DNA from: Patescibacteria group bacterium UBA2196
GTDB lineage: Bacteria; Patescibacteriota; Patescibacteriia; UBA2196
Direction: 5' to 3'
Assembly (NCBI GenBank): GCA_002328025.1
Contig: DCVE01000013.1
Span: 42,579-106,578 of the forward strand
DNA: 64,000 nucleotides
The notes below the pieces were generated by a model that was given only the letters and a program-made list of their open reading frames with translations, searched no databases and was not told the origin of the DNA. Position numbers and translations under genes: made by a program. Positions 1,530 through 63,387 of this stretch are shown in pieces (positions within the stretch are counted from its first letter, which is position 1; the number at the start of each line of letters is the position of its first letter).

Positions 1530-1532
1530 TTT

Positions 1533-3601: not shown

Positions 3602-3607
3602 TATTTT

Positions 3608-4792: not shown

Positions 4793-4829
4793 TTTGCTTA
4801 GATATTTTTTTTGTGTCATAATGTTTTAT

Positions 4830-5501: not shown

Positions 5502-5576
5502 GAATAAATGCAATTAATTTTTTGAATTAACTATTACGGATTAGGAAAATAGATTCACTTTTGGGGTGGATCTTTT

Positions 5577-5605
5577 TTGACAAAAACCTTATTTTTTGTT
5601 AATAT
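5577..5605 (+). promoter_or_regulatory. sigma70-like promoter for rnpB
   Basis: TTGACA-17 nt-TAATAT, placing the TSS about 10 nt upstream of the RNase P RNA 5' end. Confidence 0.45.
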
Positions 5606-5616
5606 AAATATTGTCT

Positions 5617-5990: not shown

Positions 5991-6012
5991 GGATATATAA
6001 GAATTTTAATTT

Positions 6013-7404: not shown

Positions 7405-7480
7405 ACTTAAAACAGCCGTGGGGCTATTTTTAGTTGGATTTAAGGTTGTGTTTTGGGTATTAAATTGGTAAGATAAAAAA

Positions 7481-8628: not shown

Positions 8629-10713
8629 TTAATACTTAAAAATCCAGGCTTTGCCGGCCATAATTTCCCAGCTTTCCTTGGCAGTGTTTTTGCCATCAAT
8701 TACAAGTTTTTTGTAGTTAGTCCAATAATCATTAAAGATTAAATATATGTTTTGAACACCGGTAAGCTGTTTAGCAGAGCTAATAAATTTTGGTTGAATA
8801 CCTTGATAAGTAATGTCAAGATAAATTTGATAAAGCGGGGAAGATGTTGGTAGGGGATAATAAAAGAGATTGTTATAATATTTTTTGAAACCAAATTCTT
8901 GTAAAGCAGCAGCCGCAGTTGATTGATTGGCTAGAACCACATAATTATCAGTGATATTTTTTTGTTCAACAAGTTGAACGGCCTGTAGATCGGCTGTGGA
9001 TACGCCGTAGCCTTTGTTTTTTTCTAGACGGTCATAACGCGGATAAGAAAAATAAAAAATTGAGACAGCAATAAAAGATAGTGTAAAAATTAATAAGCTA
9101 ATTTTTTTTGAATCATATTTTTTATCCAGTTTAAAAACAGTGGCTAGATATAATAAAAATGGTAAAGCAAAAAAATAGGCAGCATGTACAAAGCGCATGG
9201 GGAAAATATTTTGTTCGTAACTAATTACAGCACTAAAGTTTAGGCATTTTAATAATAAGGCGTTAAATAATAAAATAAAAATAAGCCAAGGAAAAATAAA
9301 TATTTTTTTATCAGTTATTACGGAATGGGTTTTATAAAATTTCCAAAAACCAAGGCTGCTGCCCAGAATTACTAATAAAATAAAATATTTTTTTAATAAA
9401 TATGGTGCATGTAAAAAAGAGTAAAAAGATAAATAATTGTCTTGCGCCAGCCATGTTTTTAATAATTCTTGGGGCCCATTAAAGTTAAAAGTTAAGTTAA
9501 AATTGGGTAACAAAAAAGTGGCGCTCAAAAAAATTATTGGCAGGATAAAAAGAAATATAAGCACAGAAAAATTAAAGACAAGCTTTTGCTGTGGGCGTGT
9601 TTTAAGCCAACACAACCAACAGCACATTAAAGCCGGCAGGCCTGCTAATGGGTGTATGGCTGTAATGCTAAGGCCCAAAAACCACAATTGGTTAATTTTG
9701 AGGGTTGCGGAATTCAGATTTATGAAAACTAGCCAGACAAAAACAATTAAAAAAAGATTGGCTAAGTGTTGAGGTGTGGTAACAAAAAACGAAAATAAAG
9801 TTAGAAGGGCAGCAAACAAGGCCAAAATTTGGGCCATTTTTTTTTCGGCCATTAATTTTAAAAAAGCAAAATAAGTAACCAACGGTATTAACAATGCACC
9901 CAAAATCGGTGCTAAAAATTTGTCAATAATAGTCAAATTTATGTATGAAATTTTGGCGATAAAAACCGTTAAACCATATTGGCCAATGTAATAGGGTGTT
10001 TGGGGTAAAACAAAACCTTGCGTAAAAATTATTTTTTCGGCAACGCGATGAATAAAAGGGTCAAAGCCGTAGCCAATTTGGTAGATTATAACTGCGACGG
10101 AGGCACTTAAAAAAATTTGTAAGACCACCAGGATGATATTTTTGGAAGAGGGGAATTTAATAATTTCAAATAGCACAAGAAAAGTGGCCAAAAAATAGAG
10201 CAAAAAGAACGGTGTTGGTAAAACTGTCCACGGTGAAACAAGCGCTTCAGAACTACTGTTTATGATTAAAAAGTAAAAGAGTGCAATAAAGAGACCTGAA
10301 TAAATTAGGTTAAGAAAAAAAATAATTTTTTTACTATCTTTTTTATTATTTTCTTCACTACTAATGGATGCAAACGGTTGAGTTGGTGTGGTTTGATTAG
10401 CCGGCAAAAAAATAGTCGTCACCAGCGGCATTAATAACACCAAAAAAATTGAAAAATTAGTTAGCCCCAGAGTATAATAAAGAATTACACTGGACAAGAT
10501 TATCTCAGCTATTAAAAAGATAAAACCTAAAAAAAATCGAAAATATTTTTTTTGACTAAAAAAAATTCGTTGACCAAAATAAAAGCTAAAAAAATAAAAA
10601 TAAATTAAAGTCAGAAGTCCGCCCACAAACGGATTTTTGAATGCCAGCATATTTAACACCAAGACTAAAATTATGAGCAGAGGTTGGATTAAAAATTTGA
10701 TTTTTTGTGACAT
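8629..10713 (-). CDS. large polytopic membrane protein (putative GT-C-like glycosyltransferase/hypothetical)
   Basis: 694 aa, many TM helices, C-terminal soluble domain. Confidence 0.55.
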   Translation of the reverse strand: MSQKIKFLIQPLLIILVLVLNMLAFKNPFVGGLLTLIYFYFFSFYFGQRIFFSQKKYFRFFLGFIFLIAEIILSSVILYYTLGLTNFSIFLVLLMPLVTTIFLPANQTTPTQPFASISSEENNKKDSKKIIFFLNLIYSGLFIALFYFLIINSSSEALVSPWTVLPTPFFLLYFLATFLVLFEIIKFPSSKNIILVVLQIFLSASVAVIIYQIGYGFDPFIHRVAEKIIFTQGFVLPQTPYYIGQYGLTVFIAKISYINLTIIDKFLAPILGALLIPLVTYFAFLKLMAEKKMAQILALFAALLTLFSFFVTTPQHLANLFLIVFVWLVFINLNSATLKINQLWFLGLSITAIHPLAGLPALMCCWLCWLKTRPQQKLVFNFSVLIFLFILPIIFLSATFLLPNFNLTFNFNGPQELLKTWLAQDNYLSFYSFLHAPYLLKKYFILLVILGSSLGFWKFYKTHSVITDKKIFIFPWLIFILLFNALLLKCLNFSAVISYEQNIFPMRFVHAAYFFALPFLLYLATVFKLDKKYDSKKISLLIFTLSFIAVSIFYFSYPRYDRLEKNKGYGVSTADLQAVQLVEQKNITDNYVVLANQSTAAAALQEFGFKKYYNNLFYYPLPTSSPLYQIYLDITYQGIQPKFISSAKQLTGVQNIYLIFNDYWTNYKKLVIDGKNTAKESWEIMAGKAWIFKY

Positions 10714-10836
10714 ATTTTATATGCTAATGATACTTTAAAAAATCATGAAAGGCAAATAATCATAACCAGTAAAAAGTAATAAATTAAAGAAAAAGAGCCT
10801 TTTTATTTTGTTGAGTTAAAATGTTATAATACAACC

Positions 10837-12522
10837 ATGGAGATATTTAATAAAAACAAAGAAATCGTTGTTTTGTCAATTTTGGCGAGTATTTTTTTTG
10901 TATTTTATTCTTTTTTGCCTTTGGCACAGATTATAAAAAGTGAGGTGCCATTTAGTCAAATTGATTTTAAATTCAATACGCCGGATGAAGTGACTAACTA
11001 TTATTTTACTAAACTTTATTCAAAAACTGGTCAGCTGTATTATGTGGAACCATATAGTTTAATGGCGGGTGGGGTGGTCTTTCCACGTTGGGCTAAGCCA
11101 ATGCAAGAAAAAGTGGTGCCGGGAACTTTTCAGGGATTGATGTTGATTTATGGTGCGTTGGCAAAAGTTTTGAGTACTTGGATAATTCTTTTTTTGACAC
11201 CCTTTTTTGCCGTGTTGGGTGTTGTGTTTTTTTATTTATTGCTTAAATTTTGGTTTGAAAAAAAAACGGCTTTTGTGTCGGCTGTTTTAATGTTTTTATT
11301 TCCTGGCTTTTGGTATTATGCTTCACGTACATTGTTTCATAATGTTTTATTTTTGACCTTGCTCTTGGCGGGACTTTATTTTTTGGTTAATTTATTACAG
11401 ACAGATCCTTTGGGTGAGTACAAATTAAAATCAAAACGTAAATTATTTTTAGCCGTGGCAAGTGGTTTATGTATGGGCGGTGCTTTAATTACACGTTCAT
11501 CAGAGTTTGTGTGGGTGTTTTTAATGGTGGTGGGTATTTTAATTTTTTATCGCAAAAATTTTAAACTTAACTTAAAATATTTAGTCTTGTGTTTTTTATT
11601 TTTTTGTTTATGTGGTGTGCCGGTTTTGCATAACAATAAAATTTTATACGGTTCATACTTGGCTAGTGGCTATTCGCAAATGGTAAGCTCTAATTTGGAA
11701 GATTTAGCGCAAATTAGGCCTATTGGTCTAGTACAAGCGTTATTGTTACCGTTTGGTTTTCACCCACAAGTGATGGTAAACCATGTTTTTGTTAAGTATT
11801 TTTGGCAGCTTTTTTGGCCTTGGGTTTTATTTTTTGTTGGTGGAATGGTTGTATTTTTAAAAAATAAAAAAACTAGTGGACAAAAATTATATTTTTATTT
11901 ATTTTTAGTCACTGGATATTTAATGCCATATTATGGGTCTTGGTTTTTTCAAGATAGTGTTAATCCATACTCAGTTAGTATTGGCTCATCTTATATTCGT
12001 TATTTTTTACCACTATTTATTTTGGCTTTGCCATTTGTTGCTTTGATGTTAATTAAGATTTCTGAGATTATAAAAATTAAAAATAAGAAAGTTGTTTTAG
12101 TCGGTTTAATTTTATTCCTGATTGTTTTGGCTGCTAATTTGGTTTATTTTAGTGGGGAAGAAAATTTGATTGCCATAAAAAACAATCTTTTAATTTATCG
12201 TTTACAAGCTCAAGATGTGGTAAATAAAACCCAACCGAGTGATATAATTTTGATGGATGTTTCTAATGATAAAGTTGTTTTTCCAGAAAGACAACATGTG
12301 GTGGTGCCACAGGGTGGGAACGAACTTTTTATGGTGAGCCGTCTTTTAAAAGTAACAGGGGTTTATTTTTTTTATCGTTCGTCCGAAGTCGATCCAACAT
12401 ATTTGAATCAAACGAAGTTTAATCCTTATAATTTAGAAATTTATGATGGGCAAGAAATTAAGGGTGGAGGAATTTTGTTTAAGGTACAACAAAGGGCAGA
12501 ATATTATGTTTTAAATAAGTAG
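10837..12522 (+). CDS. polytopic membrane protein, GT-C fold glycosyltransferase-like
   Basis: 561 aa with more than 10 TM helices; glycosylation-cluster context. Confidence 0.55.
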   Translation: MEIFNKNKEIVVLSILASIFFVFYSFLPLAQIIKSEVPFSQIDFKFNTPDEVTNYYFTKLYSKTGQLYYVEPYSLMAGGVVFPRWAKPMQEKVVPGTFQGLMLIYGALAKVLSTWIILFLTPFFAVLGVVFFYLLLKFWFEKKTAFVSAVLMFLFPGFWYYASRTLFHNVLFLTLLLAGLYFLVNLLQTDPLGEYKLKSKRKLFLAVASGLCMGGALITRSSEFVWVFLMVVGILIFYRKNFKLNLKYLVLCFLFFCLCGVPVLHNNKILYGSYLASGYSQMVSSNLEDLAQIRPIGLVQALLLPFGFHPQVMVNHVFVKYFWQLFWPWVLFFVGGMVVFLKNKKTSGQKLYFYLFLVTGYLMPYYGSWFFQDSVNPYSVSIGSSYIRYFLPLFILALPFVALMLIKISEIIKIKNKKVVLVGLILFLIVLAANLVYFSGEENLIAIKNNLLIYRLQAQDVVNKTQPSDIILMDVSNDKVVFPERQHVVVPQGGNELFMVSRLLKVTGVYFFYRSSEVDPTYLNQTKFNPYNLEIYDGQEIKGGGILFKVQQRAEYYVLNK

Positions 12523-12532
12523 TTTATTTTTT

Positions 12533-13117
12533 ATGATTGTGCGTCTTGTAAAAATATTTTTAATTTTATTTTTTATTGCACTAACCGTTTGGTTGTTGTG
12601 GTTTGATTTTGTACCAGGTAAAAATTTGGTGGTTAATTATGATTTTTGTACCACAAGTCCCATGCTGACAGAATTTTCTCCCGGTGATAGATTGTGGCCA
12701 GTGGAAAAAACCCAAGAAGGGTGTTGGCAAAAAATGGCCAAGAGCCCAGTTTATTTTGATGTACGCACTCCGCAAGTTTTTAAAACAGCTGAAGTTGAAA
12801 TTAAATATAAAAATTTAGGTGAAGAGAAATTTCAAATTGGACCACAAATTATTAAAAATGAGTGGCAGTGGTTTTTGGTTGATATTTTACCAACCGAACA
12901 AACGGGTGAGTGGCAAGTGGTAAAAATTAATTTTAATTTAGAGAATGTTTATCAAGGAGCGCCAATGATGCGTTGGCTTGTTTCGGCGCCCAACCTTGAA
13001 CAAAATCAACAAAGCATTGTAATCGGTGCTATTAAAATTGTTTTTCAAAAAGATCGATTAAGTTTTGTTAACGTCACAGAACAAATAAAAAATTATCTAA
13101 GGAAAATAAAAAGATAA
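12533..13117 (+). CDS. hypothetical protein, N-terminal TM anchor
   Basis: ORF track; single N-terminal TM helix. Confidence 0.5.
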   Translation: MIVRLVKIFLILFFIALTVWLLWFDFVPGKNLVVNYDFCTTSPMLTEFSPGDRLWPVEKTQEGCWQKMAKSPVYFDVRTPQVFKTAEVEIKYKNLGEEKFQIGPQIIKNEWQWFLVDILPTEQTGEWQVVKINFNLENVYQGAPMMRWLVSAPNLEQNQQSIVIGAIKIVFQKDRLSFVNVTEQIKNYLRKIKR

Positions 13118-30764: not shown

Positions 30765-32384
30765 ATGTCGCATAAAAATTTAAAACAATTCAAACAAAGT
30801 CCGCTAGTGATGGTAATTTTAGATGGCTGGGGAATTAATAAGGCCTATAACGGGAATGCCATTACTGGGGCTAGTGTACCAGTATTTGATACACTCTGGA
30901 AAAATTATCCACACACGGAGTTGTGTGCCTCTGGCAGGTGTGTGGGCTTGCCAGCCATGCAGGATGGTAATTCAGAAGCTGGTCATTTTAATTTGGGTGC
31001 GGGTCGAATTGTTGATCAAGATACTCTGATGGTTTCTAAGGCTATTAGCAGTGGACTTTTTTTTAAAAATCCAGCCCTTAAAGCCAGTCTTAAACATTTA
31101 AAAAGAACTGGTGGTAGTTTGCATTTAATGGGATTGCTATCAGGTTGGCAATCGGCGCACGCGGATCCAGATCATCTTTTGGCATTGCTGACATTTTATC
31201 GCCAAGAAGGTGTAAAGGAAATTTTTTTACATCTTTTTACTGACGGTCGTGATTCTTATCGTTTTGGTGCGTTAGATTTTTTAAAAAAGATAAGAAAAGA
31301 AATGCGTGGTGGTGAAAAAATTGCTACAATTTGTGGTCGTTATTATGCCATGGATAGAAAAAAACAATGGGATCGTATAGAAAAGACATATCAGGCCATA
31401 GTTGCAGGTAAAGCTGTATATTATTCCAAAACAGCTGAAGAAGCCATTAAGCAGGCTTATGATCGTGGTGAGAGTGATGAATTTATTGTGCCAACCGTGA
31501 TGGTTACTGGTGGTAAATGTGATAGTAAGGGTGTGTGTACGGGTGGTAAACCAATTACGGAAATTAAAAACGGTGATGCTGTAGTTTTTTTTAACCTAAG
31601 ATCTGATCGCGCCAGAGAGCTAACTAAGACTTTTGTACAAGCGGATTTTAATAAGATGAATGTGGGGTCTTTTGTACGTACTCGGATTTTGAAAGATTTA
31701 TTGTTTGTTTCCATGACTGATTTTGGACCTGATTTAGACAGTATCTTAACTGCTTTTCCGTCGCAAAATTTAAAAAATACATTACCCATGGTTTTGGCTG
31801 ATATGCGACAACTGTATATTGCGGAAAATGAAAAATACGCCCATGTAACATATTTTTTTAATGGTGGTTATGCTGATCCACTGAATGGTGAAGATAGAAT
31901 AATGATTCCGTCGTTAGATGTATCATCATATGATTTACAACCAGAAATGTCAGCTTTGAAGATCACTGAAAAAGTTGTGAGTGATTTGAAAAATAATAAA
32001 TATGATTTTATTTTAGTTAATTTTGCCAATCCAGATATGGTGGGGCACACTGGTAATTTGGCTGCCGGTATTAAGGCTTGTGAAACAGTGGATACTTGTG
32101 TGGGTAAGATTTTAAAAATTTTGACAGAAAAAGAAGGTATTTTATTAGTGACGGCAGATCATGGTAATGTGGAAGAAATGATTGATGAAAAAACAGGCAA
32201 GATAGACACCCAGCATTCTTCTTTCCCTGTACCGTTTATTATTGCTGACAAAAGAATAAAAAATATAAAAAATTATAAGTTAAAAAATAAAGGTATTTTG
32301 GCCAATGTGGCGCCGACAATTTTAGATTTATTGGGTAAAACGAAACCCAGAGAGATGACAGAAACCTCACTTATAGTTCATTAA
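30765..32384 (+). CDS. gpmI: 2,3-bisphosphoglycerate-independent phosphoglycerate mutase (copy 1)
   Basis: MVILDGWG...GNSEAGH (catalytic Ser); ADHGN C-terminal metal site. Confidence 0.85.
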   Translation: MSHKNLKQFKQSPLVMVILDGWGINKAYNGNAITGASVPVFDTLWKNYPHTELCASGRCVGLPAMQDGNSEAGHFNLGAGRIVDQDTLMVSKAISSGLFFKNPALKASLKHLKRTGGSLHLMGLLSGWQSAHADPDHLLALLTFYRQEGVKEIFLHLFTDGRDSYRFGALDFLKKIRKEMRGGEKIATICGRYYAMDRKKQWDRIEKTYQAIVAGKAVYYSKTAEEAIKQAYDRGESDEFIVPTVMVTGGKCDSKGVCTGGKPITEIKNGDAVVFFNLRSDRARELTKTFVQADFNKMNVGSFVRTRILKDLLFVSMTDFGPDLDSILTAFPSQNLKNTLPMVLADMRQLYIAENEKYAHVTYFFNGGYADPLNGEDRIMIPSLDVSSYDLQPEMSALKITEKVVSDLKNNKYDFILVNFANPDMVGHTGNLAAGIKACETVDTCVGKILKILTEKEGILLVTADHGNVEEMIDEKTGKIDTQHSSFPVPFIIADKRIKNIKNYKLKNKGILANVAPTILDLLGKTKPREMTETSLIVH

Positions 32385-32395
32385 TTTTAATTTTT

Positions 32396-33994
32396 ATGCA
32401 TGTAGATAATAATTTAAAAGATACAAGACCCAAACCGGTGATGCTTGTAATTTTGGATGGTTGGGGTGTGGCGCCAGCTTTAATTAGTAATGCTATTACG
32501 CAGGCTAAAACACCCAATTTTAATAAATACGTGCAACAGTATTTTAGTACGACCTTGCAAGCTTCAGGTGAAGCGGTGGGTTTGCCGTTTGGTGAAATGG
32601 GTAATTCCGAGGTCGGTCATTTAAATATTGGTGCTGGCAAAATTGTATTTCAAGAATTACCACGCATAAATAAAGCTATTTTGGAAGGCAAATTTTTTGA
32701 AAATTCAATTTTAATTAAAGCTTGTTTAGCCGCTAAAAAAAATAAAAGTACTTTGCATATAGTTGGTTTAATCTCAACTGGTGGGGTGCATGCTTCAGTA
32801 GATCATCTTTATGCGTTGTTGGAGCTTGCTAAAAAACAACAGCTAAAAAATGTTTTTGTACATGCTATTTTGGATGGACGTGATATGGGTTATAATTCTG
32901 GTTTAGATTTATTGCGTCAGGTGAAAAAAAAAATGCAGGAGATTGGCGTAGGTAAAATTGCCACAGTGTGCGGTCGTTTTTGGGCCATGGATCGTGATAA
33001 CCATTGGGAACGTATAAGTGAAGCCTACCAGGCCATGGTTTATGGAATGGCAGAATTTAAGGGCGAGGATATCTTTGAAATTATACAAACAGCATATGAA
33101 GGTGGGGTTTATGATGAAGAATTAAAACCAATAGTGTGTTTGGACACAATTGCTCAACCTTTGGCCACAATTAAAGATAAAGATGCGGTGATATTTTTTA
33201 ATTTTCGTGCTGATCGTGCTAGAGAATTGACGCGTGCTTTTGTGTTGCCGGGTTTTGAAAAATTTAGGCGTGTGGAGTATCTAGCCAATTTATATTTTGT
33301 GACCATGACACAATATGAAAAACAATTACCTGTGGATGTGGCTTTTCCACCCGAGCATATTACTATGCCGCTGGCAAAAGTTTTAAGTGGACAGGGTTTG
33401 AAACAGTTACACATAGCCGAGACTGAAAAATACGCGCACGTAACATGTTTTTTTAACGGCGGCTTAGAAGAGACGTTGCCGGGTGAATATAGAATTTTAG
33501 TTCCATCACCGCGAGTGGAAAGTTATGCTGAAAAACCAGAAATGTCCGCTGGCGAAATAAAAAACAATTTAATTAAGGAAATCGCTAACAATAAGTTTGA
33601 TTTTATAGTTGTTAATTTTGCCAATCCGGATATGGTCAGTCATACAGGTGATCAAAAAGCTACTGTCAAAGCTTTGGAAAAAGTTGATAAATGTGTGGGT
33701 GAAATTGTGGAGGCGGTTTTAGCTTATGGCGGCGTGACTTTAATAACCGCAGACCATGGTAACGCCGAGTGTTTGGTGAATGATAAAACTGGTGAAATTA
33801 ATAAAGAACACTCTACCGCCCCAGTGCCTTTTTTAATTGTTGGGCAGGCCTTCAAAAGTCAATATATTGGTGAAGAAACAGTGGATTTGACATTACTAAC
33901 ACCTTCAGGGGTGTTGGCCGATATCGCGCCGACCATTTTAAAAATTATGCAAATTGAACAACCTAAAGAAATGACCGGTAGAAGTTTAATTTAG
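32396..33994 (+). CDS. gpmI: 2,3-bisphosphoglycerate-independent phosphoglycerate mutase (copy 2, tandem paralog)
   Basis: LVILDGWG...GNSEVGH; ADHGN; clearly homologous to copy 1 but divergent. Confidence 0.85.
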   Translation: MHVDNNLKDTRPKPVMLVILDGWGVAPALISNAITQAKTPNFNKYVQQYFSTTLQASGEAVGLPFGEMGNSEVGHLNIGAGKIVFQELPRINKAILEGKFFENSILIKACLAAKKNKSTLHIVGLISTGGVHASVDHLYALLELAKKQQLKNVFVHAILDGRDMGYNSGLDLLRQVKKKMQEIGVGKIATVCGRFWAMDRDNHWERISEAYQAMVYGMAEFKGEDIFEIIQTAYEGGVYDEELKPIVCLDTIAQPLATIKDKDAVIFFNFRADRARELTRAFVLPGFEKFRRVEYLANLYFVTMTQYEKQLPVDVAFPPEHITMPLAKVLSGQGLKQLHIAETEKYAHVTCFFNGGLEETLPGEYRILVPSPRVESYAEKPEMSAGEIKNNLIKEIANNKFDFIVVNFANPDMVSHTGDQKATVKALEKVDKCVGEIVEAVLAYGGVTLITADHGNAECLVNDKTGEINKEHSTAPVPFLIVGQAFKSQYIGEETVDLTLLTPSGVLADIAPTILKIMQIEQPKEMTGRSLI

Positions 33995-48271: not shown

Positions 48272-48296
48272 TTTATTGGTTTATATACTTTTTAAA

Positions 48297-48322
48297 AGCC
48301 CTGTTGTGTACAGGGTTTTTAT
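48297..48322 (+). terminator. intrinsic terminator ending the ribosomal operon
   Basis: CCCTGT-TGTGT-ACAGGG followed by T5. Confidence 0.5.
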
Positions 48323-48324
48323 AT

Positions 48325-48353
48325 TTGACATTTTTATTAAACTGTGTTATAAT
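48325..48353 (+). promoter_or_regulatory. consensus sigma70 promoter (extended -10) driving the GC-rich island
   Basis: TTGACA-17-TGtTATAAT. Confidence 0.5.
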
Positions 48354-48402
48354 ATATTTAGCTAATATAAACAAAAATTCCTTTAAAATGAGTTGAGAGG
48401 AG

Positions 48403-49585
48403 GTGATTTCTTTGTCTCGTCAGATGAATTGCATTCAGTGGGTTCTGGTAGTTTTGGTGGTTGGATTGTTTATCTTTAACCACCGGGAAGTTATCGTAAA
48501 GCAGTACCGTGATAACACGCCCGTATTGACGAGCGAAGAAATCACGGAATTGGAAAACAATGTGGAAAAAGTATATGCCACGGCCAAAGAAAAAATAGAT
48601 GCCGAGACATATACACCGCTGGATTGGCAGCGGGATATCTATTTTTTAAAGTTAAAAATTATTCGTACCATGGGGGGGCACGTACAGCTCTGGGAGCTAT
48701 CGTTTCTATGAGCTGGCTGAAGAAGCCTATCAGTATACCATTGATAGGTATTACACCCCCAAGAGTGATGATCCAAAAAGAACATTGTTTTTTCAGCAAG
48801 AGGTTAACAATGCTCAGGCTCAAGTCATGGCGGAAAACAATGAAAGGGTTGACTGGGCTAAAATATTTAGCCAGCTTCATCTGTTCATGCTGGCTTTTCT
48901 GCCATATTCTTTGCTGATCGTCCTTATTCGCCGTTCAGCAAGATATAAATTATGGCAGATATATTCGGCCGGAGATATCGTCTGGGTCATAATTGCGATT
49001 GGCTTGAGCGTTTTTGGGGCCATCGCTTACCGCCCCGACAATTTCATCCAGAAGCGCGTTGATTCGCAACTGCAAATCTGGAAGGAAAGAATCGGTGCAA
49101 GAGGTTGGCGTTTGGCTTTGGCGTATTTGGTGGCGATTGTTATTTCTTTGGCCACTTTATTTCGCCCGGCCAAATCGCAGGCCCAGACAGTAGTCGAGAC
49201 CAAGATTGTTAGTATGGTCCCAGCTGCCACCATCGCCAATCAACAGGAAGAATCCGACGAGCAGCAAGTTTTTTTCCCAGAAAAGATCGTCGGATTTTTG
49301 CGGAGATTTTTTGAAGAAATTATGAAGGGGATTGAGACTGTTGTTTACAGTTTATTTTCTCTTCTTATTATCCATTTTTTTTCTCCTCCGCTAGAGTTTG
49401 TCTGGGGGATGTGGGCCAGGCCACCAGATGATATTCGTCTTTGGACGATCCGAGCCCTTGGTTCTCGCGCTCCTGCGAATTTTGTTCAATTTAATTCACG
49501 AATTAATTGGACAAAAAACAAAGGAGTTTATCATGAGAACCAAAATTGTAGTTTTTATAATCTTGGCGCTTTTTGCTGTAGCTAG
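48403..49585 (+). pseudogene. polytopic membrane protein gene split by a frameshift at a G7 tract (48670-48676); GC-rich island
   Basis: frame 1 ORF 48403-48711 and frame 2 ORF (open from 48656 to 49585) join across GGGGGGG; both halves carry TM helices; the intermediate ORF 48624-48917 is an out-of-frame artefact. Confidence 0.45.
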
Positions 49586-50132
49586 CGCCAAAGACCCGTC
49601 CAACACTGTGAAGTTTAATGTCGCCACAAGCGGCGGTAAAAACAGTGTTTCGGTAATTGTTTTCCATCTACGGGAAAATACTGGTTTTTTAAGTATTATT
49701 CCTCAGAACGGGATTCAAGCCGGGGTTGGACCAAATTTTTGGATAAACACGCGAGGAGTTAAGGGCTGTCTTTTTACCCCCTTGGCTCTTTGCTCTGTGC
49801 AGGACGATCAAGAAGGAATCGGGGTAGGCGAGGTAAGACTTTGGAACATCTTTTTGGCCTCAAGCGGGTCAGTAAAGGTAAGTTCATTGTCTTATTATTC
49901 CTGGCCTTTGATTCAATCCAAAACCAGGAGTTTTTATACAAAAGACCAGGTTACTTTTAGTAATTTTGGTCTGCGGATTGAGAGCGCTTGGCTTAAAGAT
50001 TGGTCCAACTTGGTCGGACCTGTATATCAATTTAACATCCATCCCAAGTTGAACATGCTTTTCTTCTTAAACCTGAATAAGGAAGTTAAAGAAAAGCGTT
50101 CACTGAAGATGGAGATGAGTGTTAGTTTCTAA
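49533..50132 (+). CDS. secreted beta-rich protein with signal peptide and C-terminal aromatic beta-signal-like motif
   Basis: RBS AAAGGAG 7 nt upstream; signal peptide MRTKIVVFIILALFAVASA; C-terminal ...LKMEMSVSF (alternating hydrophobics, terminal Phe); ~180 aa. Confidence 0.5.
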   Translation: MRTKIVVFIILALFAVASAKDPSNTVKFNVATSGGKNSVSVIVFHLRENTGFLSIIPQNGIQAGVGPNFWINTRGVKGCLFTPLALCSVQDDQEGIGVGEVRLWNIFLASSGSVKVSSLSYYSWPLIQSKTRSFYTKDQVTFSNFGLRIESAWLKDWSNLVGPVYQFNIHPKLNMLFFLNLNKEVKEKRSLKMEMSVSF

Positions 50133-50138
50133 TCAATT

Positions 50139-50170
50139 GCGGGTCGCCGAAAGGACGACCCGTTTTTTAT
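50139..50170 (+). terminator. intrinsic terminator closing the GC-rich island
   Basis: CGGGTCG-CCGAAAGGA-CGACCCG followed by T6. Confidence 0.6.
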
Positions 50171-50212
50171 TTTTGTAAAATTGGTATTTTTTTGCTATAA
50201 TCCATATAAAAT

Positions 50213-54325: not shown

Positions 54326-54397
54326 GCCCCCATCGTCTAATGGTTAGGACACATGGTTCTCAGCCATGTAATTGGGGTTCGATTCCCCATAGGGGTA
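54326..54397 (+). tRNA. tRNA-Glu (anticodon CUC)
   Basis: cloverleaf by eye: D-stem GTCT/GGAC; anticodon stem CATGG/CCATG with loop TTCTCAG; T-arm TGGGG-TTCGATT-CCCCA; acceptor has one C-A mismatch and a G-U pair; CCA not encoded. Confidence 0.65.
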
Positions 54398-54452: not shown

Positions 54453-55586
54453 ATGAGAAAGAAATTACCTTTTTTGCAAGCCATTGCAGTTTTGGTGGGC
54501 ACCACAGTCGGCGCTGGAATTTTGGGTTTGCCGTATGTTTTTGCGCAGGCTGGTTTTTGGACTGGCTTTTTGGTTTTAGTTGTGGTTGGCTTGGCCATGC
54601 TGTGTTTAAATTTAATGTTTGGTGAAATTGTTTTAAGAACAAGCGGTCAGCATCAAATTTCGGGTTATGTGGAAAAATATTTAGGCAAATTTTGGAAAAG
54701 ATTTGTGTCCGTATTTTTAGCCATAACTTTGTTTGGCGCTTTGCTGGCTTATTTTGTGGCCATTGGTCAGGCCTTGGCTGCCATTATTGGCGGACCAGCT
54801 TTGATGTTTAGTTTATTATTTTATGTTGTTTTTGCCGCTTTGGTTTTTAAAGGTGTGGGCGTGATTAAAAATGCAGAATTTATCTTGGGCTGTCTGGTGT
54901 GGTTGGTGTTTTTTGTGTTAATTATTTTTTCGTGGCCGCACGTAAAAACCAGTCACATAACCGTTTTTAATTTTAAAAATATCCTGGCGCCTTTGGGGGT
55001 GTTGTTGTTTGCTTATTCGGGTAGTATTTCTATTCCAGCCATGAAAGAAATTTTGGTGGGTAAAGAAAAATTATTTAAAAAAGCAATTCTAATTGGAGTT
55101 TTAATCCCGGGGATTTTTTATGCCATTTTTTCTTGGGCTGTAGTTGGCGCGACTGGCCTTAATACAAGCGAAGTTGCCACCATTGGTTTGGGCCAACTAG
55201 TTGGACCTTTTATTTTGGTCGTCGGAAATATTTTTGCTTGTTTAACCATGAGCACGGGATTTTTGGCTGTTGGTTTAACACTAAAAGGAATGTTTAATTA
55301 TGACTATAAAATAAAACATTTTTGGGCCTGGCTTTTGACTATGGCTGTGCCATTGGTGATTTATTTTTTAGGTTTACATGATTTTATTAACATTCTCGGT
55401 TTGGCTGGCGCCCTTGGTTTTGGTGTGGAGGGCGTGGTTTACGTGTTAACATTTTGGTATGCGCGTAAAAAAAGTGAACGTCAGCCAGAATATGTTTTGT
55501 CAACTGTTTTTGCTGTTATGGCCTCATTTTTTTTATTTTTAGTTTTTGGCAGTGGATTATTTTATACTTTAACTAATATTTTTTAA
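54453..55586 (+). CDS. amino acid permease (aromatic amino acid/TyrP-Mtr-like family)
   Basis: 11 TM helices; N-terminal VGTTVGAGILGLPY motif. Confidence 0.65.
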   Translation: MRKKLPFLQAIAVLVGTTVGAGILGLPYVFAQAGFWTGFLVLVVVGLAMLCLNLMFGEIVLRTSGQHQISGYVEKYLGKFWKRFVSVFLAITLFGALLAYFVAIGQALAAIIGGPALMFSLLFYVVFAALVFKGVGVIKNAEFILGCLVWLVFFVLIIFSWPHVKTSHITVFNFKNILAPLGVLLFAYSGSISIPAMKEILVGKEKLFKKAILIGVLIPGIFYAIFSWAVVGATGLNTSEVATIGLGQLVGPFILVVGNIFACLTMSTGFLAVGLTLKGMFNYDYKIKHFWAWLLTMAVPLVIYFLGLHDFINILGLAGALGFGVEGVVYVLTFWYARKKSERQPEYVLSTVFAVMASFFLFLVFGSGLFYTLTNIF

Positions 55587-55595
55587 TTTTATTAT

Positions 55596-56264
55596 ATGTC
55601 AAAAGTTGTTTTTGATATTGAAACCCGTGGTTTTGAGGGTGATGAGTTGGATCCAATTATAAAAGAAAACCTGCTCAAAAACGTTGTTACAGAAGAAGAA
55701 CAAGTAGATGTTTTGGCACGCAGCGGACTTTTGCCAATTAGCGGGGAAGTGGTGGCGATTGCCATGTTAAATCCAGACACCAACAAGGGTAAAATTTATT
55801 TTCAGGCGCCGGAATTGGAAAATAAAAATTATGAGCAGAATGGGGTGGAATTTATAGTGGCGACAGAAAAAGAAATTTTAGAAAAATTTTGGTTGGATAT
55901 AAAATTTTATGATCAAATCATAACCTATAACGGTCGTGGTTTTGATGTGCCGTTTATTATTTTTCGTTCCATTGCTTTGGGGATCAAACCAACCAAAAAT
56001 TTAATGCCATATCGTTACAGTTCAAAGGACCATTTTGATATTTTGGATCAATTAACTTTTTATGGCGCGTTTAGAAAATTTTCTTTGGAAGTTTTGTGTC
56101 GTGCGTTTGGGATAAAAAATCCCAAAGAAGAAGGCGTGTCTGGCCTGGCTATTAATGATTTGTTTAAAAGCAAAGACTATCAAACCATTGCCGAATATTG
56201 CATGCGTGATGTGGTGGCGACCAAAGATTTGTACGAAAAAGTGAAATCTTTTATAGAAATTTAA
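55596..56264 (+). CDS. DnaQ-fold 3'-5' exonuclease related to PolB exonuclease domain
   Basis: Exo I FDIET, Exo II YNGRGFDVPF, Exo III YCMRD motifs. Confidence 0.7.
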   Translation: MSKVVFDIETRGFEGDELDPIIKENLLKNVVTEEEQVDVLARSGLLPISGEVVAIAMLNPDTNKGKIYFQAPELENKNYEQNGVEFIVATEKEILEKFWLDIKFYDQIITYNGRGFDVPFIIFRSIALGIKPTKNLMPYRYSSKDHFDILDQLTFYGAFRKFSLEVLCRAFGIKNPKEEGVSGLAINDLFKSKDYQTIAEYCMRDVVATKDLYEKVKSFIEI

Positions 56265-56268
56265 AATT

Positions 56269-57357
56269 ATGAAAATTTTATTTGCTGGCGGCGGAACCAT
56301 GGGTTCGGTATCACCACTGCTGGCTATGGGTCAAAAAATTAAAACAGAACTTAATCAGCGCAATCAAGTTGCGGAATTTTTGTGGTTGGGAACCAAAAAC
56401 GGGCCCGAGAGGGAAGTGGTAGAAAAAAATAATATACGATTTTTGGTCATAGCGGCCGGCAAATTGCGACGTTATTTTGATTGGCGTAATGTGTTGGATG
56501 GTTTTAATATTTTTATGGCTATGTGGCAAAGTTTTTTTATTTTAATAAAATTTCGGCCGCAAGTTATTTTAACAGCTGGTTCTTTTGTGGCTGTGCCAGT
56601 GGCGGTGGTGGGTTGGATTTTGGGCATCCCAGTTTTTGTGCACCAGCAAGATGTTGAGTTTGGTTTGGCTAATAAAATTATGGCTTTTTTTGCCAAGAAA
56701 ATTACCGTGGCTTTGGAAAAATCTAGATGTGATTTTCCAGCTAGGAAAACATTTTTGGTTGGAAATCCTATTCGTCAATTTTCAAATAAATTTCAAATTT
56801 TAAATCTAAAATTTCAAAACACCTTGCCAACCATTTTAATTCTTGGTGGCGGAACCGGGGCTTTAGCTGTTAATGAACTGGTTTGGAATTCTTTAGAAGA
56901 ATTAACAAAATTTTGTAATATAATTCATGTAACTGGAAAATACAAAGCAATTAATAATGAGTCTGAAATTACCTGCCTTGCCGGTAGGCAGGTGAATTAT
57001 AAAGAAAATTATAAATCTTTTGAATTTTTAAATGAAGAAATGTTTGAAGTCATGCAAAATTCTGAACTGGTAATTTCTCGTGCTGGCATGGGTTTTTTAA
57101 CCGAGCTAGCATATTTTAGTAAGCCAACCATTATTATCCCGATGCCCAAGACGCACCAAGAAGCCAATGCAAAATATTTTGACGCTAAAAATGCGGGCGT
57201 ATATTTGCGACAGACAGAATTGACACCAAAAATTTTTGTGACGGAAATACACACTCTGTTAGATGATGAAAATAAGAAAAAAGATATGGGGAAAAATATG
57301 CATAATATTTTTATTGATTATAGTGGAGAAAAATTTTTGGCAGAAATTTTAAATTAA
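56269..57357 (+). CDS. murG: undecaprenyldiphospho-muramoylpentapeptide beta-N-acetylglucosaminyltransferase
   Basis: MKILFAGGGTMGSVSPLLA; GGGTGA C-terminal motif; GT28 architecture. Confidence 0.85.
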   Translation: MKILFAGGGTMGSVSPLLAMGQKIKTELNQRNQVAEFLWLGTKNGPEREVVEKNNIRFLVIAAGKLRRYFDWRNVLDGFNIFMAMWQSFFILIKFRPQVILTAGSFVAVPVAVVGWILGIPVFVHQQDVEFGLANKIMAFFAKKITVALEKSRCDFPARKTFLVGNPIRQFSNKFQILNLKFQNTLPTILILGGGTGALAVNELVWNSLEELTKFCNIIHVTGKYKAINNESEITCLAGRQVNYKENYKSFEFLNEEMFEVMQNSELVISRAGMGFLTELAYFSKPTIIIPMPKTHQEANAKYFDAKNAGVYLRQTELTPKIFVTEIHTLLDDENKKKDMGKNMHNIFIDYSGEKFLAEILN

Positions 57358-57361
57358 AATT

Positions 57362-58792
57362 ATGTTAGAACAAGAATTACTTAAAAAATTATTCCAACAA
57401 CATTTTAATGAAGAAGCCTTGGAAATAAAAGCTCTAAAAGGCGATGGCTCGGATCGCACTGTTTATCGTCTAACCAGTCAAAATAATACAGCCATTGGTG
57501 TGCATGGTAAAAATCGTAAAGAAAACGAAGCTTTTATTTCTTTTTCCAAAACACTGGCCGCACAAAAAATAAATGTGCCAGAAATTTATCTTTCAGATTT
57601 AGATCAGCATGTTTATTTAGAAGAAGATTTGGGTGATGAACTTTTGTTTACTTGGTTGGATAAAATTAGAAAAGAACAAAACAGTTTTAGTCCAGAGATA
57701 ATTGAAATGTATAAAAAGGTTTTAACGATTTTACCAACCATGCAAGCTGTGGCTGGACAAAAAATCAATTATGGATTGTGTTATCAGCACATAGAATTTG
57801 CGCACGAATCCATGTTGTGGGATATGCATTATTTTAAGTGGAATTTTTTAAATTTATTTTATAAAGATAATATTGATAATGAATTGTTGGAAAAAGATTT
57901 TAATGCTTTGGCCGATGTTTTAATACAGGAAGACAGAAATTTTTTTATGTACCGTGATTTTCAGTCAAGAAATATCATGCTAAAAAATAACGAACCATAT
58001 TTTATAGATTATCAATCTGGCCGGCGTGGCGCTTTGCAATATGATTTAGCCTCTTTGTTGTATGATGCCAAAGCTAAAATTCCACAAGAAACCAGAGAGG
58101 AGTTGTTAAATTTTTATTTGGGCGAGGTTAATAAGATCATCAAAGTTGAACCCGAAAGATTTAAAAAATATTTTTATGGTTTTGTCTTAATTCGTATTAT
58201 GCAGGCTTTGGGCGCGTATGGTTTTTTAGGTATTGTTAAAAATAAACCAAATTTTTTAAGCAGTATTCCTTTGGCCATTGAAAATTTAAAAACTATACAA
58301 AAACAGTGTTCTTTTTTGGCCGATTTACCCAGTCTAAATAAAATTATTAGTAGATTGTGTGAAATAGATAGTTGGCAAGAAAGCATGCCAGAAAATAAAA
58401 AATTAACTGTAAAGATATTTAGTTTTGGTTTTAAATATCCAGAACGCCCATTGGACGAAGCGGGTAATGGTGGGGGATTTGTTTTTGATTGTCGTGGTTT
58501 GGCCAACCCTTTTTGGGAAGAAAAATTAAAAAAATTAAGCGGTTTGGATGATGATATTAAGATTTTTTTAGATAGCAAAGAAAGAGTGCGGAATTTTTTA
58601 TTGCATGTTTACGAGTTGATAGATTTAACGATTTTAAGCTATCAAACCAAAGGTTACACAGATTTAATGGTTTCTTTTGGTTGCACTGGTGGTTTGCATC
58701 GTTCGGTTTATTGTGCAGAAAGATTAGCTGAGCATTTAAAAAACAAGGGTATTAAAGTTAGCGTAGAACATTTAGCTTTAAAAAATTTATGA
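57362..58792 (+). CDS. APH-fold sugar kinase (AmgK-like) fused to a RapZ C-terminal-like domain
   Basis: kinase motifs YRDFQSRNIML / IDYQ; C-terminal ~140 aa aligns by eye with the RapZ CTD (FSFGFKYP...FVFDCRGLANPFW...FGCTGGLHRSVY vs RapZ ESFGFKHGIP...YVFDVRFLPNPHW...IGCTGGKHRSVY). Confidence 0.6.
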   Translation: MLEQELLKKLFQQHFNEEALEIKALKGDGSDRTVYRLTSQNNTAIGVHGKNRKENEAFISFSKTLAAQKINVPEIYLSDLDQHVYLEEDLGDELLFTWLDKIRKEQNSFSPEIIEMYKKVLTILPTMQAVAGQKINYGLCYQHIEFAHESMLWDMHYFKWNFLNLFYKDNIDNELLEKDFNALADVLIQEDRNFFMYRDFQSRNIMLKNNEPYFIDYQSGRRGALQYDLASLLYDAKAKIPQETREELLNFYLGEVNKIIKVEPERFKKYFYGFVLIRIMQALGAYGFLGIVKNKPNFLSSIPLAIENLKTIQKQCSFLADLPSLNKIISRLCEIDSWQESMPENKKLTVKIFSFGFKYPERPLDEAGNGGGFVFDCRGLANPFWEEKLKKLSGLDDDIKIFLDSKERVRNFLLHVYELIDLTILSYQTKGYTDLMVSFGCTGGLHRSVYCAERLAEHLKNKGIKVSVEHLALKNL

Positions 58793-59526
58793 AAGCTTTG
58801 ATTTTGGCTGCCGGTTTCGGTACTCGGCTTAGACCTTTGACCGACACGATACCCAAGCCTTTGGTTCAAATTGGTTCTCTAACTTTTTTAGAGAGAGCGA
58901 TTAATTATTTAAAAAATTTTGGTGTTCAAGAAATAGCCATCAACAGTCATTATTTGGCTGAAAAATTGGAAAATTTTATTAAACAAAAAAAAGATTGGGG
59001 CGTGCCAATAAAAATATTTTTTGAACCAGAAATATCGGGTGTTGGTGGTGCTATAAAAAATGCAGCCAATTTTTTAAAAGATTCTGATCCTTTCATTGTT
59101 TTTAATGCTGATATTTTGACAGATATTGATTTAAATTTAGCTTTCAATTTTTTTAAAAAAAGTCAAAGTTTGGCAACTTTATTAGTTAATAATAGAAAAA
59201 CACAAAGACCTCTTTTGGTTGATAAAAATAATTATTTGGTGGGGCATTTGGATAAAACAACAAAGGTTCAAAAATTGGCCGTGACTAATTACGAAAAACC
59301 TTTAAAGGAAGTTGGTTTTACAGGTATACATATTGTTTCGCCAAAAATTTTTGATTTAATGCCCAAAAGCGCTAAATTTAGCGTAGTGGATTTTTATTTA
59401 GATTTGGTTATCCAGGCACATTTAATTAATGTTTTAGAATTTAATGAGGCTTATTGGCAAGATGTGGGAACTTTTGAGCGTTTAAAACAGACAGAAGCAG
59501 ACATCAGAAGTGGTAAAATAAAATAA
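58789..59526 (+). CDS. sugar-1-phosphate nucleotidyltransferase (MurU-like)
   Basis: MKALILAAGFGTRLRPLT nucleotidyltransferase motif; overlaps the upstream kinase gene by 4 nt. Confidence 0.7.
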   Translation: MKALILAAGFGTRLRPLTDTIPKPLVQIGSLTFLERAINYLKNFGVQEIAINSHYLAEKLENFIKQKKDWGVPIKIFFEPEISGVGGAIKNAANFLKDSDPFIVFNADILTDIDLNLAFNFFKKSQSLATLLVNNRKTQRPLLVDKNNYLVGHLDKTTKVQKLAVTNYEKPLKEVGFTGIHIVSPKIFDLMPKSAKFSVVDFYLDLVIQAHLINVLEFNEAYWQDVGTFERLKQTEADIRSGKIK

Positions 59527-59559: not shown

Positions 59560-59592
59560 TTCTCGGTGCTTTTTAGCACAGAGTTTTTAGTT
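59560..59592 (+). terminator. weak intrinsic terminator
   Basis: CTCGGTGC-TTTTTA-GCACAGAG followed by T5; then TTGACT-17-TAAGAT promoter for mreB. Confidence 0.35.
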
Positions 59593-59654
59593 GGTCGTAT
59601 TTTTGACTTAATCGGGCATAATTGGTAAGATTGAGTTGATTTTAAGTAGTTTTT

Positions 59655-61905: not shown

Positions 61906-62569
61906 TTATTTTATCAACAGCATCGTATTGAATCTGTAATGGTTTATTTTATCCTCTAACACTCCGGCTCTTTGGTCGACTAGTTTCAAAGGTTTCAATA
62001 CGGATTTAAGTTCAAACATGGAGTATGCTTTTGAATAATGCCCGTTTTGAATCTTATATTTCTTGCCCTTAAAGAGACCTGGTAGCGATTCATCAAATTC
62101 AGAAAAAATGGTATACCCCATGGCTTTTAATAGCACCCTTTACATTTTCCAAATAAGTCTTTTTATATTGACTTCTGATGTGATCCAAAACGCTCCAATC
62201 AATAACGATATCGAAAGCCCCTAGGTCTTTTAAAATATTTTTTACCGTGAGATCGGCAATTTTCAAATGCACTTTTTTGTCACCCCTGAATCTTTTTCGA
62301 CAAAGTTTTATGGCCTCTTTGGAAAAATCAACCCCCCAAACTTCAAATCCGAGTTTGCGAAAATATTCCATATGTCTTCCGTCGCCGCATCCGACATCCA
62401 AAATCCTCTTGGCAGAAGTATTTTTTGCTAGCTTATTTTTCTTGACAATATCAACCACGGATCTGCTCGGCGCGTATTCCCAGCTAAATTTTCGCTCGCG
62501 CCGTTTCTCATTGTTCGAAAAAGCTTTTCTGTAAAATGCCAGCTCATTTATTAAATGTTCCTTTTTCAT
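61906..62569 (-). pseudogene. class I SAM-dependent methyltransferase, frameshifted at a C4/G4 run (~62119-62122)
   Basis: ILDVGCGDGRHMEYF SAM motif in ORF 62099-62569; MTase C-terminus (..YTIFSEFDESLPGLF..) continues in ORF 61906-62136 in another frame. Confidence 0.55.
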
Positions 62570-62772
62570 TTTTTGTAAAAAATATTTTAATAAATAGAAA
62601 AAAAGGGGGGGATTTAAAAATATAATTTTACTTAATGGCGGAGACTATGGGAAGTTTGGTGGCGGTATAATTTGCGTCCAAGCACTCACCGCCAACAAAT
62701 TTGGGTGAATGACTGAGCGAAGCGAAGGAGTGAACTTCATGGTTTCTGTTAGCTGATGTTGGGCTGTTTTTT

Positions 62773-63387
62773 TTAATTAAGCTTTAATGTTGGTTCAACA
62801 ACATCTCTTATTTCTTGGCATCCAATTGCTTTGCCCGAGCCATCATCAAAGCCACTCCCGCAAGAATTTACAAAGAGGAGCCAACGGCTATTAAGCTTTG
62901 TTGGGTAGGCGTCTCCGCCTGCAGCGCAAATGTCAAAATCTTTCTTGAATTGGTCGAGTGAAGTGTATTCAGCTTTGTTGGGCAGAAGCGTTACGACAAA
63001 AGTGTCAGATTCTTGACTTGCACCAGTGTACTTGAAGTTATAGACGGTTTTGGTTGCACCGCTGAATTTTGAAACCAAGCTGTTAAAATAACTTGCCGTC
63101 CGTTCATTACCACATTCTTGAGCCATTGAAACCAGTTGGTCAGCGGTGTAACCAAATGGTGCTGTTGTTTTGGAAACAGAAGCGGAGACGCCACTTGTTG
63201 AATAAGCGAGAGGTTCCTTTGGATCCTCTTTGTCTGCAGTTGTTGTCTTGGTTGTGTCAGTTGTTATATTAGCGACTTCTTCTTGAATAACCTTGTTTTG
63301 TTGCCACCAATAAATTCCACCACCGACAACAACTGCGGTGACGAGGATGGCGAGGGCGATTGCCCACACATTGCTTTTTGATTCCAT
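62773..63387 (-). CDS. membrane-anchored Cys-containing extracellular protein (hypothetical)
   Basis: N-terminal TM anchor; Thr/Lys-rich linker; 6 Cys; GC ~45%. Confidence 0.5.
   Translation of the reverse strand: MESKSNVWAIALAILVTAVVVGGGIYWWQQNKVIQEEVANITTDTTKTTTADKEDPKEPLAYSTSGVSASVSKTTAPFGYTADQLVSMAQECGNERTASYFNSLVSKFSGATKTVYNFKYTGASQESDTFVVTLLPNKAEYTSLDQFKKDFDICAAGGDAYPTKLNSRWLLFVNSCGSGFDDGSGKAIGCQEIRDVVEPTLKLN

Follow-up and report, generated by a model that had tools for sequence, protein, structure and literature searches.

An AmgK-like kinase fused to a RapZ-type C-terminal domain forms a conserved bacterial gene pair with a MurU-like nucleotidyltransferase

Results

A kinase-RapZ fusion gene and a nucleotidyltransferase gene directly after murG

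Here we describe a gene pair from Patescibacteria group bacterium UBA2196, located in a 64-kb stretch of DNA (hereafter, the window) that is part of a 281-kb contig. The first gene encodes an AmgK-like kinase fused to the C-terminal domain (CTD) of RapZ, and the second encodes a MurU-like sugar-1-phosphate nucleotidyltransferase. We observed that the kinase-CTD fusion and the transferase constitute a real, well-conserved gene pair, and that the fusion spans hundreds of bacterial species in about ten phyla. The family is already present in databases, often mislabeled, and apparently it is functionally undescribed in the literature. The features of the locus are as follows, in window coordinates.

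56269 to 57357, plus strand: murG, 362 amino acids, first cell-wall gene of a tight co-directional block
57362 to 58792 (stop codon included), plus strand: two-domain protein of 476 amino acids, AmgK-like APH-fold kinase and RapZ CTD
57362 to 58375, plus strand: kinase module, residues 1 to about 338, APH/protein-kinase-like fold (Pfam APH)
57953 to 57973, plus strand: catalytic loop R198-D199-F-Q-S-R-N204, at the HxDxxxxN position with R replacing H
58007 to 58015, plus strand: D216-Y-Q218, metal-binding "DFG-like" Asp motif
58397 to 58789, plus strand: RapZ-type CTD, residues 346 to 476
58679 to 58705, plus strand: anion-binding loop G440-C-T-G-G-L-H-R-S448 (C-x5-R-S), by alignment to RapZ
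58789 to 59526, plus strand: MurU-like sugar-1-phosphate nucleotidyltransferase, 245 amino acids, PF00483; its start overlaps the kinase stop (ATGA)
59566 to 59579, plus strand: hairpin resembling a terminator, T-rich tail, downstream of the transferase gene (weak evidence, consensus scan only)

The list of open reading frames (ORFs) and the sequence itself agree with the initial annotation of this locus in the position of the 476-amino-acid ORF directly after murG, the stop codon of which lies 4 nucleotides before the kinase start, and in the 4-nucleotide overlap with the 245-amino-acid ORF. The motifs quoted there are present in the translation, namely YRDFQSRNIML (residues 197 to 207) and IDYQ (215 to 218) in the kinase and the RapZ-like strings FVFDCRGLANPFW (373 to 385) and FGCTGGLHRSVY (439 to 450), and the domain search that it had proposed matched both PF01636 and PF22740 in the 476-amino-acid ORF. 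The upstream ORF contains both GT28 domains (Pfam Glyco_transf_28 and Glyco_tran_28_C), and its best NCBIfam model is murG TIGR01133 with 232 bits, slightly below the cut-off of 250.25 bits.

The two enzyme modules

Pfam places the APH domain (PF01636) at residues 22 to 253 (E 8.6e-12), and the only NCBIfam matches of the kinase above noise were to two AmgK models, NF045759 and NF045698 (the AmgK models comprise 324 and 360 positions). The sole sequence match in the PDB was 3csv. This structure was also the best Foldseek match (template modeling score, TM, 0.77 on the target), and its aligned region itself scores best against the AmgK model NF045698 (229 bits). Methylthioribose, choline, and aminoglycoside kinases followed 3csv among the Foldseek matches in the PDB for the N-terminal 340 residues or so. 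The kinase and 3csv have RDFxxxN, IDxQ, and YDLxSLLxDA in common. In the catalytic loop, which reads HRDFHAQN in 3csv, residues R198, D199, Q201, S202, R203, and N204 are invariant among 62 family members, as is D216-Y-Q218, which aligns with IDFQ of 3csv. Besides its APH fold, the module thus has both the catalytic loop with its Asp and the Asp of the metal-binding site, and its earlier designation as an AmgK-like kinase of the APH fold is confirmed by Pfam, by the NCBIfam ranking, and by Foldseek.

The 245-amino-acid ORF matches NTP_transferase (PF00483) over residues 2 to 239 (E 7.8e-30). It is of the minimal single-domain type, with an N-terminal G-x-G-T-R...K signature (AAGFGTRLRPLTDTIPKPL), of which G9, G11, R13, and K23 are invariant in the family, and without a C-terminal left-handed beta-helix domain. 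MurU (NF045761) was the best of 34 NCBIfam models with 137.4 bits, followed by mannose-1-phosphate guanylyltransferase with 102.9 bits, and MurU was likewise the best model for all 18 of the 18 family members tested. When a profile of 18 transferases was searched against the PDB, the MurU structures 4y7t (136.7 bits) and 8hhd (124.7 bits) led the matches. The Pfam match and these top ranks uphold the previous classification of the protein as a MurU-like nucleotidyltransferase.

Other pairings of an APH-fold kinase with a small nucleotidyltransferase include LicA/LicC-type pairs, in which a choline or amino-alcohol kinase and a cytidylyltransferase would act to attach phosphocholine or a related group to surface polymers. 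Choline kinase LicA (4r77) was indeed among the Foldseek matches of the kinase (TM 0.68 on the target), and LicC (1jyk) was among the PDB matches of the transferase. However, the match to LicC was confined to the N-terminal 70 residues or so (74 bits), whereas that to MurU was full-length, no choline-kinase NCBIfam model passed, and the neighbors are peptidoglycan genes. We therefore consider a LicA/LicC-type function very unlikely.

The RapZ-type C-terminal domain

The RapZ C-terminal domain PF22740 was detected at residues 349 to 472 (Pfam, E 1.3e-33), and residues 330 to 474 align to Escherichia coli RapZ (phmmer against the PDB, E 2.5e-22). Both matches are far beyond chance, and the recognition of a RapZ CTD in the initial annotation was correct. 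In all-pairs comparisons within the family, the CTD shows 55% identity, the kinase 56%, and the linker 40%, indicating that the CTD is under a constraint equal to that on the kinase. All 62 of 62 sequences share S354-F355, F375-D376-x-R378 (D376 corresponding to RapZ D182), N382-P383, G440-C-T-G-G-x-H-R-S448, and H470, and the glycine-rich loop aligns with C247-T248-G249-G250-K251-H252-R253-S254 of RapZ. In crystal structures of RapZ, the backbone of T248 and G249 together with the side chains of H252, R253, and H190 hold sulfate or malonate (PMC5737377), and the RapZ CTD in isolation binds glucosamine-6-phosphate (GlcN6P) (PMC7073468). The equivalents of four of these pocket residues, T442, G443, H446, and R447, are invariant in the 62 sequences.

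An AlphaFold2 model of the 476-amino-acid protein, built on 62 homologs, had a mean predicted local distance difference test score (pLDDT) of 92.4 and a predicted TM score (pTM) of 0.73. The loop C441-TGGLH-R447-S448 is positioned between strand 434 to 441 and helix 447 to 461 of the model. The CTD accordingly has a C-x5-R-[ST] loop flanked by a strand and a helix, as in cysteine phosphatases, and this loop is invariant in 62 of 62 sequences. The fold of the CTD, by contrast, was not closer to protein tyrosine phosphatases (PTP), low-molecular-weight PTP, or rhodanese than to other alpha/beta folds. Identity to the fructose-6-phosphate-binding subdomain of phosphofructokinase was only 11 to 15% over about 85 residues, and according to the authors of the RapZ structures the binding pocket of phosphofructokinase is not conserved (PMC5737377).

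The loop raises the question of whether the CTD is catalytic. It might conduct cysteine-dependent phosphoryl transfer, for example, as an N-acetylmuramic acid-6-phosphate (MurNAc-6-P) phosphatase replacing MupP, and the cassette would then convert MurNAc-6-P, arising from AnmK, MurK, or the phosphotransferase system, via MurNAc and MurNAc-1-phosphate into UDP-MurNAc. We judge this unlikely. A related proposal, to which we assign a similarly low probability, is that the RapZ CTD was ancestrally an enzyme or a substrate-handling module of amino-sugar salvage rather than an RNA-binding domain, with a phosphoryl-transferring Cys-x5-Arg loop in this cassette, and that the small RNA adaptor function of RapZ in enterobacteria is a late co-option of the pocket. 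If true, the loop would act on a derivative of muramic acid or glucosamine phosphorylated at position 6, and the cassette would provide a MupP-independent route from MurNAc-6-P to UDP-MurNAc.

Breadth of the family and arrangement of the modules

A homolog search covering 5.8 billion proteins, in clusters at 90% identity, identified at least 8000 protein clusters with the kinase-CTD architecture. Both Pfam domains were present in 120 of the best 120 homologs, at lengths of about 470 to 490 amino acids, and the fused frame is thus no assembly artifact. These 120 homologs came from Patescibacteria, KSB1, Marinimicrobia, Bacteroidota, Calditrichota, Elusimicrobiota, Ignavibacteria, and Acidobacteriota, and the window protein has 42 to 53% identity to members from other phyla. 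With each species represented by a single genome, a scan yielded at least 596 loci that have the architecture. The initial annotation had taken the fusion for a novel architecture, and with these numbers of clusters and species-representative genomes it is clearly not particular to the genome of the window. Public databases list members as "RNase adapter RapZ," "RapZ C-terminal domain-containing protein," "phosphotransferase," or "hypothetical protein" (for example, Calab_1713 of Caldithrix abyssi). In the searchable literature, AmgK and RapZ do not occur together in any paper, and the three papers that mention both RapZ and MurNAc do not, to judge by title and abstract, deal with the kinase-CTD fusion.

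For gene neighborhoods, 80 loci were taken from about ten phyla. In 70 of the 80, the next gene downstream encodes a transferase homolog on the same strand, with the same 4-nucleotide ATGA overlap in 24 loci, and two of the ten remaining loci are cut by a contig end. Kinase-CTD genes with no adjacent transferase gene occur in the Bacteroidota loci L016, L019, L027, L034, L048, L073, and L080, which include Bacteroidales, Prolixibacteraceae, Draconibacterium, and Sunxiuqinia, and any partner of theirs would be encoded in another part of the genome. Upon clustering of all ORFs of the 80 loci, no neighbor other than the transferase was common across phyla.

A search with the CTD alone among 1.84 billion representative proteins returned 3638 matches and uncovered two further arrangements. 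In one of these, kinase, CTD, and transferase form a single polypeptide (P0192, P0199, P0209, and P0221). In the other, CTD-transferase proteins of about 380 amino acids are encoded after the gene of a CTD-less APH kinase, the stop codon of which abuts or overlaps their start. These proteins are not fragments. Their genes lie on contigs of up to 5.4 Mb and directly behind the CTD-less kinase gene. The stand-alone kinase in L087 aligns to residues 5 to 338 of the window protein (38% identity, E 5e-69), and the CTD and transferase pieces of the split arrangement have 42% identity to its residues 345 to 473 and 36% identity to the window transferase, respectively, so that each piece has its homolog in the window. 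The three modules are thus cut into genes in three ways while their order, kinase, CTD, transferase, is constant, which is strong evidence that the CTD acts in the same process as both enzymes. Among the proteins found, P0157 (718 amino acids) carries a DNA_pol_A_exo1 3'-5' exonuclease domain N-terminal to its APH and RapZ_C domains, and this could be a mis-joined gene call. In the window, an exonuclease gene of a different, PolB-like type is separated from the cassette by murG.

These arrangements also bear on the possibility that the fusion protein is a true RapZ-type regulator, which would bind a small RNA or a signaling partner and exert post-transcriptional control of amino-sugar synthesis, as the name "RNase adapter RapZ" borne by many members implies. 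RapZ of E. coli is an RNase adaptor and a GlcN6P sensor, and YvcJ of Bacillus subtilis binds UDP-N-acetylglucosamine (UDP-GlcNAc). The window protein retains the fold of the CTD as well as four of the five residues of the pocket, residues that also touch the backbone of GlmZ in E. coli RapZ, and the window subclade keeps a RapZ-like W-E-E-K-L-K loop after N382-P383. In contrast to RapZ and YvcJ, however, it has no Walker-A P-loop domain at its N terminus, where the first 338 residues adopt the APH fold, and its match to the RapZ equivalog NF003828 (cut-off 244 bits) scores 116.5 bits and is limited to model positions 121 to 275. The basic C-terminal tail (K270, K281, R282, and K283 of RapZ) is not conserved in the window protein, which ends in ...KGIKVSVEHLALKNL, and throughout the family the tails vary and lack a basic character. 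No GlmZ, GlmY, or glmS element was found in the 64-kb window at Rfam gathering thresholds, where only RNase P RNA and one tRNA were detected. Finally, H190 of the pocket is replaced, the partner genes are metabolic, and the CTD travels with metabolic enzymes in all three architectures. The public label is unsupported by the domain content, since both the P-loop domain and the basic RNA-binding tail are absent. We think that the CTD is not an RNase adaptor and regard a RapZ-type regulatory role as extremely improbable.

Gene neighborhoods in Patescibacteria and other phyla

In the four Patescibacteria loci, comprising the window and three relatives, murG directly precedes the fusion gene (4 of 4), and the order flippase, glycosyltransferase family 4 (GT4), GT2, murG, kinase-CTD, transferase is common to the window and the relatives at 75%, 73%, and 58% identity. 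Different peptidoglycan genes are found elsewhere. About ten Acidobacteriota loci have as divergent neighbors genes for MurA (549 bits, above the cut-off of 392.7) and MurQ (360 bits, above 302), with a gene for a fusion of glycoside hydrolase family 3 (GH3) and PBP4B-like domains (NagZ/PBP4B-like) nearby. In L015, from a UASB14 genome, murA overlaps the start of the kinase gene, and in a KSB1 locus the transferase gene is followed by a beta-lactamase-family gene, with an Amidase_3 gene nearby. The substrate of MurQ is MurNAc-6-P, and MurA commits UDP-GlcNAc to UDP-MurNAc. These roles fit a salvage route from MurNAc to UDP-MurNAc, which they thus favor.

The initial annotation had compared the locus to the AmgK/MurU salvage bypass that provides UDP-MurNAc independently of MurA and MurB. 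The salvage part of this proposal gains support from the neighborhoods in several phyla, whereas the bypass part goes beyond the evidence, and the cassette adjoins murA in Acidobacteriota and in L015. Searched by tblastn with MurA and MurQ of L005, neither the window nor four loci of Patescibacteria gave a match. Within the window, to which these observations apply, there was no Pfam match to MurA or MurB among ORFs of at least 120 amino acids at 1 to 18.7 kb and 51.7 to 61.8 kb, and none was seen at 19 to 51.7 kb, where ORFs were mostly read by eye; three ORFs at 62 to 64 kb were left out.

The cassette closes a run of five co-directional genes at 54453 to 59526, separated by gaps of 9, 4, 4, and -4 nucleotides and preceded by a tRNA at 54326 to 54397. 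Their order is a permease of the Trp_Tyr_perm/Aa_trans family, a PolB-like 3'-5' exonuclease (PF10108), murG, the kinase-CTD gene, and the transferase gene. The order of permease, exonuclease, murG, and kinase recurs in L083, the relative at 58% identity, which suggests co-transcription. The transcription unit probably ends at the hairpin at 59566 to 59579, and a promoter-like site with an extended -10 element was found at 59603 to 59631, ahead of mreB (weak evidence from a consensus scan). Promoter-like sites were no more numerous than in shuffled sequence, and hence they define no operon start. Downstream of the cassette, the window has mreB and a GT4 gene, unlike the Patescibacteria relatives L081, L083, and L085, in which a convergent phosphoribosyl pyrophosphate synthetase gene and a short MFS_1 gene (191 to 203 amino acids) follow. 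An ORF of 159 amino acids with no Pfam match lies between the kinase-CTD and transferase genes in one Patescibacteria relative (L083, 11483 to 11962, and L084, 5876 to 6355).

Other features of the window

Several observations concern the remainder of the window. Tandem paralogs of 2,3-bisphosphoglycerate-independent phosphoglycerate mutase (iPGM_N and Metalloenzyme) at 30765 to 32384 and 32396 to 33994 directly follow pgk and eno, both identified by eye. A segment of about 1.9 kb after rpsI, at 48272 to 50212, has a G+C content of 0.42 compared to about 0.35 and contains only two overlapping TTG-start ORFs, with no Pfam match and no Rfam match (E up to 0.1). Bacterial class A RNase P RNA (5618 to 5992; Rfam, 169.6 bits) is located within a long cluster of glycosyltransferase and sugar-transferase genes (414 to 8572), and ORFs of 694 (minus strand), 561, and 194 amino acids (both plus strand) at 8629 to 13117 have no Pfam match (E up to 1e-5). 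GC skew is strongly positive (0.14 to 0.29) across 62 kb, with nearly all genes on the plus strand, and drops to about 0 over the final 2 kb, in which genes turn to the minus strand (62099 to 63387). This drop may mark a strand-bias boundary.

Discussion

The closest characterized counterpart of the gene pair is the anabolic MurNAc recycling pathway of AmgK and MurU in Pseudomonas putida and P. aeruginosa, which has been shown in Caulobacter as well (PMC13046382). As in that pathway, the gene of an APH-fold kinase adjoins that of a small single-domain NTP_transferase in a peptidoglycan gene context, and AmgK and MurU are the best-scoring characterized families for the two enzymes. Unlike AmgK, the window kinase possesses an additional RapZ-type domain of about 130 amino acids, which is absent from 3csv (333 amino acids) and from the AmgK models, and the transferase has extra residues compared to P. 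putida MurU around positions 125 to 170. A salvage route to UDP-MurNAc is also known from Tannerella forsythia, a MurNAc auxotroph whose AmgK and MurU allow E. coli to incorporate MurNAc probes (PMC10941766, PMC7670621). Its phylum, the Bacteroidota, is one of those with many members of the kinase-CTD family.

We interpret the two ORFs, with moderate confidence, as a divergent MurNAc salvage cassette of the AmgK/MurU type with an integrated phosphosugar-binding CTD of the RapZ type. In such a three-module cassette, the APH-fold kinase would phosphorylate the anomeric C1 of the sugar, as AmgK does, and the translationally coupled MurU-like enzyme would convert the sugar-1-phosphate and UTP to UDP-MurNAc, which would feed MurC to MurF, MraY, and MurG, the gene of which directly precedes the cassette. 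As an obligatory middle module that keeps the RapZ fold and the invariant phosphate-binding loop, the CTD would bind a phosphosugar, for example an amino-sugar 6-phosphate or a pathway intermediate, and thereby couple salvage to the state of the pool of cell-wall precursors. Domain identities, the breadth of the family, module order, and gene neighborhoods are direct results of this study. From these we infer the substrate, the way in which any regulation would run, and what the CTD may bind. Most likely, the CTD binds a phosphosugar, and it would thereby tune the salvage enzymes or feed them. The idea, put forward in the initial annotation, of an amino-sugar-phosphate sensing module is plausible and is the reading of the CTD that we prefer.

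Several observations weigh against this interpretation. Scores of the kinase against the AmgK models were 62.3 and 36.9 bits, compared to equivalog cut-offs of 550 (NF045759) and 500 (NF045698), and the transferase remained below the cut-off of 250 bits of the MurU model. Because neither enzyme reaches the score of a curated equivalog, and both in fact fall far below it, the substrate assignment rests on best-hit ranking and context. In the PDB profile search, the margin of MurU was small, with 120.9 bits for a UDP-glucose enzyme and 110 bits for ManC, a mannose-1-phosphate guanylyltransferase. Regarding the CTD, the position of RapZ H190 is F384 in the window protein and G in 56 of 62 relatives, and the residue following it is W, compared to R in 54 of 62 relatives. 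Most of the family therefore has G-R at these two positions, and the replacement of R by W indicates a less basic pocket in the window subclade. The relative orientation of kinase and CTD is only moderately supported by the structural model, as its pTM shows. In eight loci, mostly of Bacteroidota, the kinase-CTD gene has no adjoining transferase gene. Finally, the adjacency of murG fits production of UDP-GlcNAc equally well, because UDP-GlcNAc is the donor of MurG.

This last point leads to the possibility that the cassette conducts the same chemistry on another substrate, converting N-acetylglucosamine (GlcNAc), or else N-acetylgalactosamine or another hexosamine or sugar, to a UDP- or NDP-sugar. 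Its product could be the UDP-GlcNAc used by MurG or a precursor for the many glycosyltransferases encoded nearby. P. putida AmgK carries the NCBIfam name N-acetylmuramate/N-acetylglucosamine kinase, the scores of both enzymes leave room for a different sugar, with UDP-glucose and mannose-1-phosphate transferases only slightly below MurU, and the Patescibacteria block places a flippase gene and GT4 and GT2 genes before murG and the cassette, in a window rich in GT2 and GT4 genes. On the other hand, MurU ranked first for every member tested as well as in the PDB profile search, and the neighbors in other phyla are specific to MurNAc (MurQ) or committed to UDP-MurNAc (MurA). A cassette devoted to a different sugar is therefore a lesser, though appreciable, possibility, and GlcNAc is credible as an additional or alternative substrate.

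RapZ and YvcJ proteins are widespread, and their roles outside the enterobacterial GlmY/GlmZ circuit, as well as that of the conserved CTD pocket, are unsettled. The cassette described here provides an RNA-free context in which to consider a ligand or the chemistry of the RapZ CTD. In it, the CTD with its invariant loop is obligatory between kinase and transferase and can be attached to either enzyme, which suggests that the original job of the CTD lay in cell-wall sugar metabolism. The results also identify an annotation problem, in that many kinase-CTD proteins carry the name "RNase adapter RapZ." The interpretation as MurNAc salvage would define a divergent route of the AmgK/MurU type in Patescibacteria, Acidobacteriota, Bacteroidota, Calditrichota, and other phyla. 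In the reduced genomes of Patescibacteria, where the cassette is arranged like an operon with murG, it could be a main source of UDP-MurNAc, and this, if true, would bear on the host dependence of these bacteria.

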